Below are positions 9,620 through 15,859 of a DNA stretch of 45,384 nt, one piece after another. The notes under the pieces were generated by a model that was not told the DNA's origin, made no database searches, and saw only the letters and a program-made list of their open reading frames with translations. Numbering within the stretch: position 1 is the first letter of the stretch; each line of letters begins with the position of its first letter. Origin of the DNA: a virus (lineage: Duplodnaviria; Heunggongvirae; Uroviricota; Caudoviricetes). A program made the translations under genes and the position numbers. The DNA is taken from positions 1-45,384 of IMG/VR virus record IMGVR_UViG_2537561934_000012; one strand, 5' to 3'.

Positions 9620-9883
9620 ATGAAGAAGCGTTTTTCCGACGAACAGATCATCAGTATTCTCCGCGAAGCCGAAGCTGGGGTACCCGCCCGTGAACTCTGC
9701 CGCAAGCATGCCATTTCCGATGCCACGTTTTACACCTGGCGTAAGAAGTATGGCGGTATGGAGGTGCCTGAAGTTAAGCGCCTGAAGTCGCTTGAGGAAG
9801 AGAACACCAGACTCAAGAAGCTGCTTGCCGAAGCCATGCTGGATAAAGAGGCGCTTCAGGTGGCTCTTGGGCGAAAGTACTGA
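9620..9883 (+). CDS. IS3-family transposase OrfA (HTH and leucine-zipper-like region)
   Basis: 87 aa [20 protein letters not shown]..., typical of IS3-family OrfA proteins. Confidence 0.85.
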
Positions 9884-9906
9884 CGACAGACCAGAAGCGG
9901 GAAGCC

Positions 9907-10740
9907 GTGATGTTGATGTGTGATGCGACCGGTCTGTCGCAACGTCGTGCCTGCAGGCTTACAGGTTTATCCCTGTCGACCTGCCGCTATGAGGCTCACC
10001 GTCCGGCTGCTGATGCGCATTTATCAGGGCGCATCACTGAGCTGGCACTGGAGCGCAGGCGTTTTGGCTACCGTCGTATTTGGCAGTTGCTGCGCCGTGA
10101 AGGGCTTCATGTTAATCATAAGCGCGTGTACCGGCTTTATCACCTCAGTGGCCTGGGCGTAAAACGCAGAAGACGTCGTAAAGGGCTGGCAACAGAACGT
10201 CTGCCGCTGCTCCGTCCGGCGGCGCCCAATCTGACCTGGTCGATGGATTTCGTCATGGACGCACTTTCCACCGGTCGCAGGATCAAGTGTCTTACCTGCG
10301 TCGATGATTTCACAAAGGAATGCCTGACGGTCACTGTTGCCTTTGGGATTTCAGGCGTTCAGGTCACGCGTATTCTGGACAGCATTGCACTGTTTCGAGG
10401 CTATCCGGCGACGATAAGAACTGACCAGGGGCCGGAGTTCACTTGCCGTGCACTGGATCAATGGGCCTTTGAGCATGGTGTTGAGTTGCGCTTAATCCAG
10501 CCGGGCAAGCCAACGCAGAACGGATTTATTGAGAGCTTTAACGGACGATTTCGCGATGAATGTTTGAATGAGCACTGGTTCAGCGATATCGTTCATGCCA
10601 GGAAAATTATTAATGACTGGCGGCAGGATTATAACGAATGCCGCCCGCACTCCACGCTGAATTATCAGACACCGTCTGAATTTGCAGCGGGCTGGAGAAA
10701 GGGTCATTCTGAGAATGAAGATTCCGACGTTACTAACTGA
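9907..10740 (+). CDS. IS3-family transposase OrfB (DDE integrase core); expected to be made as an OrfAB -1 frameshift fusion
   Basis: DDE/rve-like core (...TDQGPEFTC...[32 protein letters not shown]...). Reading frame is -1 relative to OrfA. Confidence 0.85.
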
Positions 10741-11324: not shown

Positions 11325-11629
11325 AGGCTATAAACCGACTAACAACTAAATACTGAAGATTTAAATCAGAAACGATTTTTATTAAATCCTTAACCGGAGG
11401 GATTCTGCACCCTCAGAACATCAGGAGGCCGTCTGAAAGGGCGGAACAGATAATGCTTACGTTGAAAAATTTTATCGACATACCAACATGGTTAGCCGTC
11501 ATTGCTTTTGTTAAAATACACATCCACTTTTCTGTGCAATGTTTAACCACTGGTCATATCAAATGGCATTCATGCGAACCATGATATAGAATCATGGCTT
11601 GAGAGAGTCGATGAAAGCGCAACTATGGT

Positions 11630-12208
11630 ATGAGAGACATTGATGTAAGAAAGGCTGTGCATGCCAAGATTCTGAGAGATCATCATAAAGATCCTGACAC
11701 CCTAATCATTGATGAGTTTACGATGAATCTAGGGGCTAGCAGAGCTGATATAGCAGTGATCAATGGGCTTATACATGGTTATGAGTTGAAGAGCAAGAGT
11801 GATAACTTGCTCAGATTACCAGCGCAGGTGCAACATTACTCATCAGTGATGGATAAAGTAACTTTGGTTGTCTCTGATTGCCATCTTTATGATGCTTTAA
11901 GCATAGTTCCATCATGGTGGGGGATAAAGCAAGTTACGCAAGGTGCACGGCAAGGTATCCATTTAAAAACAATTCGAACTAGCAAGTTGAATCCACAAGT
12001 GGACAAACTTTCCTTAACAATGCTTCTTTGGAAAGATGAATTGCTTTCCCTATTAAGTGATGTAGGGGAGCTACAGAATTTGAAAAATAAACCTAAACGC
12101 GTCTTATGGTCAAAACTCGCCAATAGTATGGATGTTGGCGAGCTTCGTGAAGCTGTTCGAGTTAAACTTAAAGCCCGTAAAGAGTGGCGAGTTGCTCAAC
12201 AACCTTAG
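11630..12208 (+). CDS. PD-(D/E)xK-type predicted nuclease (192 aa), candidate defence component A
   Basis: Motif arrangement IIDEF ... RADIAVINGLIHGYELKSK (D, then E-x-K about 12 residues later) typical of restriction-endonuclease-fold proteins. AT-rich gene. Recalls the database family label sce7726 (from memory). Confidence 0.55.
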   Translation: MRDIDVRKAVHAKILRDHHKDPDTLIIDEFTMNLGASRADIAVINGLIHGYELKSKSDNLLRLPAQVQHYSSVMDKVTLVVSDCHLYDALSIVPSWWGIKQVTQGARQGIHLKTIRTSKLNPQVDKLSLTMLLWKDELLSLLSDVGELQNLKNKPKRVLWSKLANSMDVGELREAVRVKLKARKEWRVAQQP

Positions 12209-13265
12209 TTATGTGATGGTTTTGCCCAATCCTACGCCATACCTCTGGGCTACCAAATTTATAGTTACCAGAGGGATTGGCTTTGTAGGCTTGATACTCG
12301 TTTGCATAATATTCTATGTCTCTATCTCCCGCACAGAATGTAGGCCCTGAATATTCTCGATGAGCAAGAATATCCTCACTATGTTTACCATATTGTTCAT
12401 AACCAAAGCGATTAGCTACTCTTCCTCGAAATACCCAAAAGTCATTATCTCCAGAGTATCTGACGCTGGCAGATACGCTAGGGAATCGCGTCGAAAGCCT
12501 ATTAAAGTCGGGGTGCTGTACTCCATAATCACTATAAATCACATTTCTGGCAAGTTCTTTTCTATTCATTAAACTCTGCCATAAAATCCACTCGATTCGA
12601 GGTTGAGAATATAGACCAACAGAAATATCACTGAGATCTGTAGGAAATGAACCCCCAGAAAGAATCACTTTTCTGTATTCATTGAGGTGCGCCAGATTGT
12701 TTATCAATCCCATTGCCAAAGTATATAGTTCGCCGGAATTAAGTTTATCCTCGGTTAACTCATCTCTTAAGTCAATAATTATATCAATATTTGATAAAGG
12801 AATTCCCAGATGATTAATGTAATGCGTTATTAATTGTGGGTTAACCAGATCTAACGTGGTTAATCTCAAGCATATTTCATTCTGCATTAATTCATCAATC
12901 GCTCTTTTATAGTTAGATGGGCGAGTTGGTGAACTGACAGGAATAACTCTTATCCCCATATCTCTAACTTGATTAACCGCATTTATTATAGGGTAATGAT
13001 CTTCAGGAGAAATAAAATGCTCTTCAATTAATAATCCATCAATATAAACACCTTGCATATCTGAGCAAGATTTTGAGACTTTCTTTCCGAACTCTATAAG
13101 AGTCTCGTTATAACTCTTTAAGGCAATACCTGAATCAGGGTCAATTGGCACTGGTTCAATTTCGAGTAATGGCAAAATTTTTGATTTCTTTTCAATGGAT
13201 AGCTGCGATAAAGCTGATAACTCAGAACGTTTCGCTTTCAGAATAGGAATATATGAAATTGTCAT
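12168..13265 (-). CDS. Hypothetical protein (365 aa), candidate defence component B, convergent partner of the PD-(D/E)xK gene
   Basis: Long ORF in AT-rich DNA with an AAGG Shine-Dalgarno. Its 3' end overlaps the partner's 3' end by 41 bp on the opposite strand. Recalls the sce7725-type partner family (from memory). Confidence 0.55.
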   Translation of the reverse strand: MTISYIPILKAKRSELSALSQLSIEKKSKILPLLEIEPVPIDPDSGIALKSYNETLIEFGKKVSKSCSDMQGVYIDGLLIEEHFISPEDHYPIINAVNQVRDMGIRVIPVSSPTRPSNYKRAIDELMQNEICLRLTTLDLVNPQLITHYINHLGIPLSNIDIIIDLRDELTEDKLNSGELYTLAMGLINNLAHLNEYRKVILSGGSFPTDLSDISVGLYSQPRIEWILWQSLMNRKELARNVIYSDYGVQHPDFNRLSTRFPSVSASVRYSGDNDFWVFRGRVANRFGYEQYGKHSEDILAHREYSGPTFCAGDRDIEYYANEYQAYKANPSGNYKFGSPEVWRRIGQNHHITKVVEQLATLYGL

Positions 13266-13822
13266 GTTAATACCTTATACAGAATCAATTAACAATTAAT
13301 GGTTCTTCGGACATTGAAATTTATATCGCAAAAATTGGCAAACTCTCCTCGACTACTCACTTGTGGGTATCCTGGCGTAAAAGGAATGACTTGGCAATAC
13401 CCGGTGTGATCATAAGTCATTGAAAATGATCATTTTTATCAGTCTTTCTTCCATGATGAATGCTAATGCCATTTGATTTGTTGAGGTAAAAAGTGTTAAA
13501 AATCAAAACGATGTAATTGAAATGAACGTTCGGTAGCATTCACGCTTTAAATGTTTCTTTTGTGCTGATTGGATGAATTTTGGTCACTTATGATGAGAGA
13601 TGTTGCAGGAAAAGAAGTTGGCATTGATCTATTGGATAGTTAGAATTGCTGCGGGTGCTTGAGGCTATCTGCCTCAGGCATGAACACCAAAAGGCAGATA
13701 GAGAAAAGCCCCAGTTAACATTACGCGTCCTGCAAGACGCTTAACATTAATCTGAGGCCCAATCTATGTCTCACAAATGTAGGTTAGCCTCTTACGTGCC
13801 GAAAGGCAAGGAGAAGCAGGCT

Positions 13823-13978
13823 ATGAAGCAGCAAAAGGCGATGTTAATCGCCCTTATCGTCATCTGTTTAACCGTCATAGTGACGGCACTGGTAACGAGG
13901 AAAGACCTCTGCGAGGTACGAATCCGAACCGGCCAGACGGAGGTCGCTGTCTTCACAGCTTACGAACCTGAGGAGTAA
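13823..13978 (+). CDS. hokD: Hok/Gef-family type I toxin (51 aa), HokD/RelF-like
   Basis: Product MKQQKAMLIALIVICLTVIVTALVTRKDLCEVRIRTGQTEVAVFTAYEPEE matches the remembered HokD sequence. Single transmembrane helix. An in-frame upstream extension starts at 13766. Confidence 0.8.
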   Translation: MKQQKAMLIALIVICLTVIVTALVTRKDLCEVRIRTGQTEVAVFTAYEPEE

Positions 13979-14425: not shown

Positions 14426-15475
14426 GTGCGGGTGTTACTTCGACCTGTTCCGGTACCGGAACTTGGGCTGGTGGTGCTAAAACCGGGCCGTGAATCCATG
14501 CAGGTATTTCATAACCCTCGAGTTCTGGTGGAGCCGGAACCGAAAAGCATGCGCGGTCTGCCGTCCGGAGTCGTTCCTGCTGTTCGCCAGCCGCTGGCGG
14601 AGGATAAATCATTACTGCCATTTTTCAGCGATGAGCGGGTGATTCGTGCTGCTGGTGGTGCTGGGGCACTGTCTGACTGGCTGTTGCGTCATGTCAAATC
14701 CTGCCAGTGGCCACACGGCGATTATCATCACAGCGAAACCGTTATTCACCGATATGGTACCGGCGCAATGGTGTTGTGCTGGCACTGCGACAACCAGCTG
14801 CGTGACCAGACATCCGAATCACTCGGGCAACTTGCTCATCAAAACCTGTCAGCATGGATGATTGACGTCATCGGTCACGCAATAAGCGGTACGCAGGAGC
14901 GTGAATTATCTCTGGCTGAATTATCCTGGTGGGCGGTCCGCAATCAGGTGGCGGACGCGCTACCGGAAGCGGTATTACGTCGTTCGCTGGGCTTGCGTGC
15001 GGAAAAAATCCGCTCGGTGTACCGCGAAAGCGACATCGTACCGGGAGAGCAGACCGCCACCAGCATACTGAAACAGCGCACAAAAAATCTTGCGCCGCTG
15101 CCTCACGTCCACCAGCAACAGAACGCACCACAGGAAAAGACGGTGGTCAGCATTGCCGTAGATCCGGAGTCTCCGGAATCTTTCATGAAACGACCTAAAC
15201 GTCGCCGTTGGATAAATGAGAAATACACACGCTGGGTAAAGACACAGCCGTGTGCGTGTTGTGGTCAGCCAGCCGACGATCCCCATCACCTGATTGGTCA
15301 CGGTCAGGGAGGGATAGGAACAAAATCCCACGATATTTTCACGCTACCGCTGTGTCGGGAGCATCACAACGAGCTTCATGCGGATCCGCTGGCGTTTGAA
15401 GAAAAATATGGTTCTCAGATTGATTTAATTTTTCGTTTTCTTGATCACGCCTTTGCAACCGGCGTGCTCGGGTAA
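14426..15475 (+). CDS. DUF968-like protein with C-terminal HNH-like Cys/His motif (Qin YdfU-like)
   Basis: 349 aa. C-terminal CACCGQPADDPHHLIGHGQGG...LPLCREHHNELH. Confidence 0.55.
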   Translation: MRVLLRPVPVPELGLVVLKPGRESMQVFHNPRVLVEPEPKSMRGLPSGVVPAVRQPLAEDKSLLPFFSDERVIRAAGGAGALSDWLLRHVKSCQWPHGDYHHSETVIHRYGTGAMVLCWHCDNQLRDQTSESLGQLAHQNLSAWMIDVIGHAISGTQERELSLAELSWWAVRNQVADALPEAVLRRSLGLRAEKIRSVYRESDIVPGEQTATSILKQRTKNLAPLPHVHQQQNAPQEKTVVSIAVDPESPESFMKRPKRRRWINEKYTRWVKTQPCACCGQPADDPHHLIGHGQGGIGTKSHDIFTLPLCREHHNELHADPLAFEEKYGSQIDLIFRFLDHAFATGVLG

Positions 15476-15487
15476 AAGAGGTTACTG

Positions 15488-15859
15488 ATGCGTATAGAGT
15501 TTGTTTTGTCTTACCCGCCGACGGTGAACACCTACTGGCGACGCCGTGGCAGCACATATTTTATCTCTGAGGAGGGAAAGCGTTATCGCCGGGCTGTGGC
15601 GCTTATTGTTCGCCAGCAGCGGCTGAAATTAAGGCTGTCCGGAAGGCTGGCGATAAAGGTGATTGCAGAGCCACCGGATAAGCGTCGTCGCGACCTGGAC
15701 AATATCCTGAAAGCACCGCTGGATGCGCTGACGCATGCGGGAGTGTTAATGGACGATGAGCAGTTTGATGAAATCAATATTGTGCGCGGTCAGCTCGTTC
15801 CTGGTGGTCGGCTGGGCGTGAAGATTTACGAAATTACAGGTGATAACGATGGCGCGTGA
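15488..15859 (+). CDS. rusA: RusA-type Holliday junction resolvase
   Basis: 123 aa. [12 protein letters not shown]...[29 protein letters not shown] matches the RusA pattern, including the conserved DxD and DD acidic residues. Confidence 0.8.

Follow-up and report, generated by a model that had tools for sequence, protein, structure and literature searches.

The gop-beta-cII block of satellite P4 was described by Rousset et al. (2022, PMC9122126) as protecting against phages lambda and P1. In the same account P4 beta neutralises the toxin gop, gop and beta are described as a likely toxin-antitoxin (TA) pair, and the known toxic component in P4 is gop, not cII (PMC9122126). In addition, a phage orf184 has been reported to trigger cell death via gop-beta-cII (bioRxiv 10.1101/2023.04.06.535777). 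In these two sources, protection and phage-triggered cell death are reported for the three-gene blocks of P4 and ECOR59 only (PMC9122126; bioRxiv 10.1101/2023.04.06.535777). The second related system, PD-lambda-2, is TA-derived and consists of a HigB-like component A, an Xre-HTH/IrrE-peptidase component B and a beta-like component C, the last of which is needed for defence and not for neutralising the toxin of that system (Vassallo et al. 2022, PMC9519451). Both gop-beta-cII and PD-lambda-2 have been experimentally validated and are mechanistically unexplained.

Here we describe a locus in a Rac-like prophage that carries homologues of beta and cII and no gop. The homology of these genes to beta and cII had itself already been annotated.

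The two-gene locus and its genomic setting

The features of interest in the window, that is, the whole stretch of viral DNA that was analysed (45,384 nucleotides), are as follows:

11325–11629, plus strand: region upstream of the sce7726 gene, with one promoter-like site at 11563–11592 (ATGGCA-18-TAGAAT) in a consensus scan, its assignment uncertain
11630–12208, plus strand: sce7726 / Phage_P4_cII-family gene, 192 aa, predicted PD-(D/E)xK nuclease with a C-terminal helical domain
12168–12208, both strands: antisense 3' overlap of 41 bp, coding on both strands
12168–13265, minus strand: Beta_protein-family gene, 365 aa, predicted TIM barrel with a C-terminal helical extension
13266–13652, minus strand: region upstream of the beta gene and its presumed promoter site, AT-rich (GC 0.35), without a gop-like or conserved small ORF

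The convergent reading frames, their coordinates and the 41-bp overlap of their 3' ends were all as claimed in an earlier note on this DNA. The AT-richness that the note attributed to the pair was also confirmed, with a GC content of 0.384 in the pair compared to 0.48–0.49 in the 5-kb flanks and 0.510 in the window. The overlap encodes approximately residues 180–192 of the sce7726 protein, including the conserved K181, R183 and W186, and approximately residues 353–365 of beta, including the conserved V355 and L359. No terminator was found between the two genes, and the numbers of promoter and terminator sites found by consensus scan in the pair region were not above shuffled expectation. An Rfam scan identified no RNA elements within the pair, its matches being the neighbouring sok and the frameshift element of an insertion sequence (IS).

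Of 5426 complete E. coli genomes, 93 (many of them O111, O121 and O103 STEC) carried the pair with at least 98% identity, and none of these copies was disrupted. Each of the two proteins also has hundreds of homologues. These are real genes, therefore, and not chance ORFs.

The pair follows the replication module of the prophage. Upstream is an IS3-family element (transposase ORFs at 9620–10740, Rfam IS1222 frameshift element at 9850–9967) and downstream is hok/mok/sok (sok at 13653–13828, ORF at 13766–13978), in agreement with the prophage location and the IS and hok neighbours that had been claimed for it. Annotated near-identical copies lie in Rac-like prophages, with the replication module (ydaU/ydaV, DUF977) on one side and hokD / DUF968 / RusA / DUF1133 on the other; the Rac-like lambdoid neighbours of the pair are racR, ydaT/U/V, DUF977, hokD, DUF968 and RusA. 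A second allele was found at another position in prophages, flanked by lysis genes and terminase genes.

Homologous pairs were found in prophages, satellites and plasmids and beside defence genes. Outside phages, the pair was found on rhizobial plasmids, in Patescibacteria, and in chromosomal islands where BREX, restriction-modification and DRT genes are its neighbours. The neighbours at homologous loci, given here as a descriptive list, were BrxL, a type III methyltransferase, MzaA, DRT reverse transcriptases, a type IV restriction enzyme, integrases and P4-type primases. Together, the second prophage slot and the non-phage settings indicate that the pair behaves as portable cargo, unlike a core function of the phage. 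The defence context proposed in the earlier note holds as a description, in that homologous pairs occur in mobile elements and beside defence genes and have relatives in validated anti-phage systems.

Families and predicted folds of the two proteins

The 192-aa protein is a full-length member of the sce7726 / Pfam “Phage_P4_cII” family. Its residues 1–184 matched the 184-position NCBIfam sce7726 model (NF033832) at 191.1 bits, against a cut-off of 70, and it matched the PADLOC cll model at 2.4e-28. The sce7726 nuclease family is large, comprising approximately 5,400 clusters at 50% identity. The AlphaFold model of the 192-aa protein (pLDDT 94) has the PD-(D/E)xK fold that the earlier note expected of it, with the core alpha-beta-beta-beta-alpha-beta arrangement present, D40 on the strand formed by residues 37–44, and E52 and K54 on that formed by residues 48–54. 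The restriction-endonuclease motif order read from the sequence was also found, as E29 (in IIDEF), D40 (in RADIAVI) and, twelve residues on, E52 and K54 (in E52-L-K54) were 100% conserved across a 37-sequence alignment and 95 unique homologues. Q66xxxY70 was likewise invariant in the 37-sequence alignment. The nearest structural neighbour was 3dnx, which is MmcB-like, and one database name among the homologues is MmcB-like DNA repair protein. No sequence similarity of the sce7726 protein to any solved nuclease was detectable, such that the link to these enzymes is by fold comparison alone. The 192-aa protein is a PD-(D/E)xK nuclease-fold protein with an intact catalytic motif, and is predicted to be a nuclease.

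The core fold and catalytic motif are common to this protein and other PD-(D/E)xK nucleases, such as MmcB-like 3dnx, the nuclease domains of Can2/Card1, NucS, Cap4 and type II restriction enzymes. However, unlike effectors of the Can2/Cap4 type, the 192-aa protein has no sensor domain fused to it, whether CARF/SAVED or another, and beta, as a separate protein, would have to provide its regulation. As with Can2 and Cap4, the nuclease would then work under control, as an effector, and not as a free-standing enzyme.

The 365-aa partner, in which the earlier note could name no motif, was readily placed by profile searches. Its residues 5–356 aligned to positions 1–341 of the 342-position Pfam Beta_protein model (PF14350; 2.4e-52, 179 bits against a threshold of 27), and it matched both PADLOC PD-Lambda-2_C models over their full length (PDLC03983 at 1.4e-41 and PDLC03984 at 3e-38). 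The protein is far closer to PD-Lambda-2_C than to the P4-type PADLOC “beta” HMM (1.4e-41 versus 2e-4), the latter match being weak and confined to the N-terminus. Its predicted fold is a TIM barrel followed by a C-terminal helical extension, and invariant acidic and basic residues line a polar pocket at the catalytic face of the barrel in the model and the alignment of homologues. The top ranks of a Foldseek search with the beta model held only triosephosphate isomerases and aldolases, which are generic TIM-barrel matches, and no solved structure related to beta by sequence was found.

The family labels sce7726 and sce7725 had been suggested for the pair in the earlier note, and only the first of these was retained. 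NCBIfam describes a pair, sce7725/sce7726 (NF033831/NF033832), which resembles the present one in that an sce7726-family protein has a conserved adjacent partner, and differs in the family of the partner, which is Pfam Beta_protein here. The sce7725 model NF033831 matched only the N-terminal 35 residues of the 365-aa protein, with 12.3 bits where the cut-off is 60, and was also unmatched by all ten of ten diverse beta partners of sce7726 homologues.

Conservation of the pair and comparison with gop-beta-cII and PD-lambda-2

At 140 loci from more than 10 phyla, the beta and cII genes almost always faced each other, their 3' ends overlapping by a median of 47 bp in a fixed phase. A convergent partner was present at 72 of 80 genome loci anchored on sce7726; an overlap greater than zero was found at 70 of 73 genome loci, again with a median of 47 bp, and its length was 2 mod 3 in 67 of the 70. 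Viral loci anchored on beta, sampled with alignment A2 and hence biased toward the beta subfamily of the 365-aa protein, had a convergent partner in 54 of 60 cases, with overlapping 3' ends in all but one of the 54. The two proteins also co-diverge (Mantel r = 0.856, a value reached by 0 of 999 permutations). These data on co-occurrence and synteny, which the earlier note had proposed as a check, support the two genes being a conserved, co-inherited pair.

Sequence comparisons linked both proteins to those of P4: P4 cII was 28% identical to the 192-aa protein (E 1.4e-14) and P4 beta 23% identical to the 365-aa protein over residues 9–347 (E 9e-7). P4 cII also carries the catalytic E, D and ExK residues, the beta and cII homologues have the same convergent, tail-to-tail layout (beta at 651–1718 on the plus strand and cII at 1746–2540 on the minus strand in the P4 annotation), and in both cases the cassette is accessory cargo of a temperate mobile element. 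Existing annotation of copies of the pair reads “CII phage-like protein / beta” and “sce7726 family / beta family” (phage Rac-SA53, RefSeq). The claim that this is an undescribed system was therefore not upheld in full, and the suggested kinship with defence was, since the relatives of the pair belong to experimentally validated anti-phage systems. The P4 block is named Rst_gop_beta_cll in DefenseFinder, and PADLOC has models gop, beta and cll for it.

There were also clear differences from P4. The P4 beta and cII genes are separated by a 27-bp gap that holds a terminator, whereas here they overlap by 41 bp. P4 cII has 264 residues compared to 192 here, where its C-terminal extension is absent. 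The P4 block is located at a cos-proximal hotspot, next to cos/psu/int, whereas the pair described here is in a lambdoid Rac-like prophage. In P4 the small membrane toxin gene gop is directly upstream of beta, whereas the pair here is without gop. The best tblastn match of P4 gop in the window had an E of 1.3 and fell at unrelated sites, phmmer with gop against the six-frame translation of the window returned nothing at E <= 10, and the PADLOC gop HMM was also negative, on which basis we rejected a degraded or unannotated gop. Two small ORFs upstream of beta (40 and 43 aa) were likewise rejected as gop candidates, as their conservation did not extend beyond E. coli copies of at least 99% identity and they had no PADLOC match.

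The 365-aa protein corresponds over its full length to component C of PD-lambda-2. Neither component A nor component B is present anywhere in the window: a phmmer search with the PD-Lambda-2_A protein of locus L035, verified by its match to the PADLOC model (2.5e-37), and a search of the six-frame translation with an HMM built from 17 PD-Lambda-2_B homologues both found nothing at E <= 10. At 17 of 72 surveyed loci a PD-lambda-2 B-C operon was followed by a convergent, overlapping sce7726 gene, with a HigB-like A in 6 of the 17, and plasmid pCB3126_2 has the same arrangement. These loci indicate that the PD-lambda-2 and beta/cII architectures share the same core, upstream of whose beta gene either gop or HigB plus the Xre-peptidase was optionally present among the surveyed loci. 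The published PD-lambda-2 clone extends approximately 396 bp beyond gene C, too short for an intact convergent sce7726 gene, which indicates that beta-containing systems can defend without the cII nuclease. Some loci with B and C also have no sce7726 (e.g., L151). By contrast with the published clone, the only recognisable effector at the locus described here is the nuclease.

Proposed role of the pair in the lysogen

Based on these comparisons, we favour, with a probability of roughly 55%, the interpretation that the intact two-gene cassette of this Rac-like prophage is the bare beta-cII core common to gop-beta-cII and PD-lambda-2, and that it protects the lysogen from other phages. In the mechanism we infer, beta would be the infection sensor or switch, as suggested by PD-lambda-2 C and by the restraint of gop by P4 beta, and the cII-like nuclease would be the effector, cutting DNA in response to a trigger. 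A candidate for this trigger is an accessory protein of the infecting phage, like the orf184 reported for gop-beta-cII, and the most likely outcome would be abortive infection or superinfection exclusion. The convergent overlap would prevent the two genes from being separated, and antisense transcription through it may link their expression. Points that count against this interpretation are that the toxin known from P4 is gop and not cII, that systems with beta can defend without the cII nuclease, and that the fold matches of beta are generic. Our literature search found nothing on a two-gene, gop-less form or on the biochemistry of beta and cII.

We consider it unlikely that the pair is instead chiefly a TA or addiction module, with the cII-like nuclease as toxin and beta as antitoxin, whose main role is prophage stabilisation by post-segregational killing and for which defence is incidental. 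A tight two-gene layout on mobile elements, here adjoining another TA locus, hok/sok, would suit such a module, as would the neutralisation of gop by P4 beta in what was described as a likely TA pair (PMC9122126) and the TA origin of PD-lambda-2 (PMC9519451). However, the toxin countered by P4 beta is gop, which is absent here, and PD-lambda-2 C is dispensable for neutralising the toxin of its system (PMC9519451). In addition, sce7726 is intact at two loci in which beta is destroyed (split by IS1 in L114, a fragment in L043), and the reverse was found in L123, where sce7726 is frameshifted and beta intact; judged by gene content, neither gene looks obligatorily lethal alone.

A restriction-modification-like role, in which beta would modify DNA or the nucleotide pool (cf. 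the DpdA/TGT transglycosylases) and the nuclease would cut unmodified incoming DNA, appears improbable. Restriction-modification systems commonly have an enzyme gene and a nuclease gene in convergent orientation, and the catalytic face of the beta barrel carries invariant residues, both acidic and basic, as an enzyme would. However, the relatives of the pair reportedly work through abortive infection or cell death and not through restriction (PMC9519451; bioRxiv 10.1101/2023.04.06.535777). The similarity of beta to DpdA/TGT is also no better than that to dozens of unrelated TIM barrels, beta has no sequence link to any solved enzyme, and copies with a disrupted beta and an intact nuclease exist.

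Similarly improbable is a benefit to the phage apart from immunity, either in lysogeny control, for which it counts that P4 “cII” was named for the clear-plaque phenotype of its mutants, or in DNA repair or recombination by an MmcB-like nuclease, to which the 3dnx neighbour, the MmcB-like DNA repair name and the adjoining prophage replication and recombination genes point. Against this, the same pair is present outside phages, in rhizobial plasmids, chromosomal islands beside defence genes and Patescibacteria, its second prophage slot between lysis and terminase genes fits portable cargo, and the P4 three-gene block has anti-phage activity demonstrated by Rousset et al. (PMC9122126).

A broader form of the defence interpretation, which we consider less likely than not, is that beta and cII are an ancient, self-sufficient immune core formed by a TIM-barrel sensor or enzyme and a RecB/Cas4-like PD-(D/E)xK nuclease, with the phase of the 3' overlap kept across more than 10 phyla. 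In that case gop and HigB/Xre-peptidase would be bolt-on effectors upstream of beta, the nuclease would execute defence in the minimal form, beta would contribute an activity, catalytic or ligand-binding, that phage immunity has not been known to use, and the two genes might regulate each other at the RNA level by way of the overlap.

Current detection rules call for gop, or for components A and B of PD-lambda-2. The gop-less, two-gene form would consequently be missed, and these rules would need updating. This form is not rare, given that 93 of the 5426 complete E. coli genomes carry this one allele, that a second allele exists elsewhere and that the nuclease family has approximately 5,400 clusters. 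The conserved, dual-coding convergent overlap is an unusual feature of gene organisation and a possible means of antisense regulation. If the bare pair is functional, it would be the smallest tractable model for these systems, with only two genes, a confident structure model for each product and obvious residues to mutate, and the conserved beta and cII unit would become the object of study, with the toxin genes as its accessories.

Two convergent genes in a lambdoid accessory slot

The earlier note had described two convergent, AT-rich ORFs with shared 3' ends, and their coordinates were exactly as given there. The GC content of the pair is 38.4%, versus 51.0% for the window and 48–49% for the 5-kb flanks on each side.

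Features of the pair and its neighbours in the window
11630-12208, + strand: ORF of the 192-aa protein
12168-13265, - strand: ORF of the 365-aa protein
12168-12208: 41-bp overlap of the 3' ends of these convergent genes
9620-9883 and 9907-10740: transposase ORFs of an IS3-family element upstream of the pair, between the DUF977 gene and a rac22-like ORF
9850-9967: IS1222 frameshift element within the IS3-family element (Rfam)
13653-13828: sok (Rfam, 121.7 bits) of a hok/mok/sok type I toxin-antitoxin locus downstream of the pair
13766-13978: mok/hok ORF of the same locus

The IS and hok neighbours that had been pointed out are real, and the hok/mok/sok locus, annotated as hokD in relatives, directly adjoins the upstream region of the 365-aa protein (beta) gene. 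The proposed prophage position, between replication module and Q region, matched the annotated copies in phage Rac-SA53 and the E. coli O121 and O103 chromosomes (Rac-like lambdoid prophages), in which the slot is bordered by ydaU/ydaV and DUF977 replication genes on one side and by hokD, DUF968, RusA and DUF1133 (Q-region) genes on the other. The window's DUF968 gene (14426-15475, with a weak HNH-nuclease signal) and the RusA-family resolvase gene that follows it (15488-15859) are ordinary lambdoid nin-region genes. Other copies carried other insertions, IS1 in Rac-SA53 and an IS3 downstream of beta in O121 RM8352, and these differences in element and position mark the area as a target zone for IS insertion.

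A predicted nuclease fold and a beta-family partner

The 192-aa protein is a full-length member of the NCBIfam sce7726 family (1.7e-56; 191 bits vs a cut-off of 70), as the earlier note had suggested, and also matched PADLOC "cll" (2.4e-28) and phrog_984; its homologues carry the precomputed Pfam assignment PF26915, "Phage_P4_cII". The nuclease motif and restriction-type fold proposed from the sequence were borne out by the AlphaFold model (pLDDT 94.2, 37-sequence alignment), in which D40 sits on core strand 2 and E52-x-K54 on core strand 3. E29, D40, E52 and K54 were invariant in those 37 homologues and in a set of 95 unique homologues. Q66 and Y70 were invariant too; QxxxY spacing is typical of the RecB/Cas4 branch. 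No sequence relative was found among solved structures. Based on the model and these residues, the protein is assigned a PD-(D/E)xK nuclease fold with an intact catalytic motif. The family is large, with 5,442 representatives at 50% identity clustering (E <= 1e-3) among 1.84 billion proteins.

The sce7725 half of the suggested label did not hold for the 365-aa partner, which scored 12.3 bits against a cut-off of 60; none of 10 diverse partners of sce7726 homologues reached that model either. The partner instead matched Pfam Beta_protein across the whole model (2.4e-52), PADLOC PD-Lambda-2_C (1.4e-41) and phrog_9159. Its AlphaFold model (pLDDT 94.5, pTM 0.93, 47 sequences) has alternating strands and helices, and we count as a new point that beta is, as modelled, a TIM barrel with an enzyme-like pocket. 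The most conserved residues (E15, D165 and D246, 100%; W343, 99%; R223 and H351, 98%), together with D76, R134, D161, R198 and H350, lie mostly at the C-terminal ends of the barrel strands, the substrate-binding site of TIM-barrel enzymes, and beta would thus appear to be an enzyme or a ligand-binding protein.

Conservation of the pair and variation upstream of beta

With a single genome sampled for each species, a scan anchored on sce7726 yielded 80 loci, distributed over Enterobacterales, Vibrionales, Alpha- and Betaproteobacteria, Myxococcota, Desulfobacterota, Acidobacteria, Firmicutes, Cyanobacteria/Melainabacteria, Patescibacteria, Chloroflexi, Gemmatimonadetes, Nitrospirae and Elusimicrobiota. 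The co-occurrence that the earlier note had proposed checking was found: a convergent beta-family gene lay immediately downstream in 72 loci (two of the other eight are contig ends), and a beta-anchored scan of viral contigs recovered a convergent sce7726 partner in 54 of 60. The 3' ends overlapped in 70/73 loci of the first scan (median 47 bp) and in all partnered viral loci except the frameshifted L123. Overlap length was 2 mod 3 in 67 of the 70, so the phase in which the two strands are read has stayed unchanged from the common ancestor onwards; the antiquity of the convergent overlap and its phase is likewise new here. Both strands of the overlap encode conserved residues (sce7726 R183, 100%, and W186, 95%; beta V355 and L359). 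In addition, the identity matrices of the two proteins correlated (r = 0.856, 95 unique pairs), a value reached in 0 of 999 permutations. That the two genes are a conserved core unit is a further addition.

In phage P4, gop (+) lies directly upstream of beta (+), which converges with cII (-) as in the window; RefSeq names the latter two "beta family protein" and "sce7726 family protein", and they are 23% and 28% identical to the window proteins. The pair is therefore not the undescribed system that had been supposed, but the P4 beta-cII module in a variant form that lacks gop. Neither gop nor PD-lambda-2 A or B homologues were found at E <= 10 in a six-frame translation of the window, there was no PADLOC match for the immediate neighbours or small ORFs, and no small ORF upstream of beta was conserved beyond near-identical copies. 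Together, these data indicate a true two-gene form. The viral loci of the beta-anchored scan likewise had no gop and no PD-lambda-2 A or B.

Among the 72 paired loci, 17 had a same-strand Xre-peptidase gene upstream of beta (PADLOC PD-Lambda-2_B, 3.7e-155), and six of these also had a HigB-like gene (PD-Lambda-2_A, 2.5e-37), giving a four-gene arrangement of A-B-C and convergent sce7726. At the loci examined for upstream genes, gop was seen in P4 only.

Loci with a PD-lambda-2 B-C operon and convergent sce7726
L035, 1107-4395: B-C operon, then convergent overlapping sce7726
L045, L053, L054, L056, L057, L059-L063, L067, L071, L073, L079, L080, L082: same arrangement
L148, 3106-6409: B-C and convergent sce7726 on a Sinorhizobium plasmid

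The gop and PD-lambda-2 toxin genes are alternative add-ons upstream of beta, also a new point, and the arrangement raises the possibility that sce7726 is a frequent fourth component absent from PD-lambda-2 as described. The published clone extends only ~396 bp past gene C, which leaves no room for a complete convergent nuclease gene, and a Rhizobium plasmid carries PD-lambda-2 B and beta without sce7726; both indicate that beta is able to function alongside other partners and that the nuclease is not a universal requirement.

Several loci departed from these arrangements. At nine, a 60–173-aa gene occupied the usual position of the HigB-like A upstream of the B-like gene, with DUF6932/PADLOC PDC-M63A matches at L053 (7871-8350) and L057 (7876-8355). 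In Melainabacteria/Obscuribacterales (L072, 2412-7828; L074; L078; L081), the sce7726 homologue had a lysine/arginine-rich C-terminal extension and a Ser/Thr kinase gene upstream (4/4). It converged, with a 10–13-bp overlap, on a 713-aa DUF4388/DUF4384 protein gene rather than beta in L072, L074 and L081, and a transposase-like ORF intervened in L078; the genes here seem to form an alternative set of partners. In Xenorhabdus koppenhoeferi (L011, 5001-6810), sce7726 was followed by a same-strand protein-kinase fragment and a PP2C phosphatase gene, with no beta. On Acinetobacter pNDM plasmids (L149, 3501-6915), a B-like gene preceded a beta truncated by an IS30-family element, itself immediately upstream of blaNDM-1.

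Possible role of the pair

The main intuition of the earlier note, a nuclease with a partner, the sce7726 label and carriage as defence cargo, was a good one. By sequence comparison, this is a conserved, co-evolving pair on mobile cargo, whose members are homologues of components of two validated defence systems. Rousset et al. (PMC9122126) report that gop-beta-cII gives protection from lambda and P1, and cite older work in which gop was toxic without beta; Silas et al. (bioRxiv 10.1101/2023.04.06.535777) describe cell death via gop-beta-cII triggered by the phage accessory gene orf184. The PD-lambda-2 system of Vassallo et al. (PMC9519451) has a HigB-like protein and an Xre-peptidase fusion, and its third member, described as "related to a P4 phage antitoxin", is needed for defence and dispensable for toxin neutralisation. 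In a purely descriptive sample of 150 ORFs, neighbours of the pair included BrxL, a type III methyltransferase, MzaA, DRT-type reverse transcriptases and a type IV restriction enzyme, as well as integrases, P4-type primases and phage lysis genes.

The window allele was present in 93 of 5426 complete E. coli genomes, always chromosomal, with both genes full length and at least 98% identical. A second E. coli allele (L145, 3134-4763; also L146 and L147), ~54% identical to the window nuclease, encodes 206- and 355-aa proteins with a 59-bp overlap and occupies a different lambdoid accessory slot, with the Rz lysis gene on one side and terminase Nu1 on the other. Rare decayed copies occurred in both directions. 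In L114 (4001-7661), an inverted segment flanked by two IS1 copies split beta into 232-aa N-terminal and 133-aa C-terminal parts with sce7726 intact; L043 had a beta fragment and an intact nuclease, and L123 a frameshifted nuclease and an intact beta. In L116, beta was truncated by IS1 and sce7726 was lost. The first three argue against either gene being obligatorily lethal alone. A toxin-antitoxin or addiction module is an unlikely alternative. A restriction-modification-like enzyme pair is slightly less probable again, and a lysogeny or repair function is just as improbable.

We favor the pair being an anti-phage module in its own right, at a rough probability of 0.55 for the reading as a whole and far lower for any single mechanistic step. 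Beta would act as the sensor or switch, responding to a phage product, and the nuclease as the effector, probably bringing about abortive infection or superinfection exclusion. The overlap would guarantee co-inheritance of the two genes and may also couple their expression.
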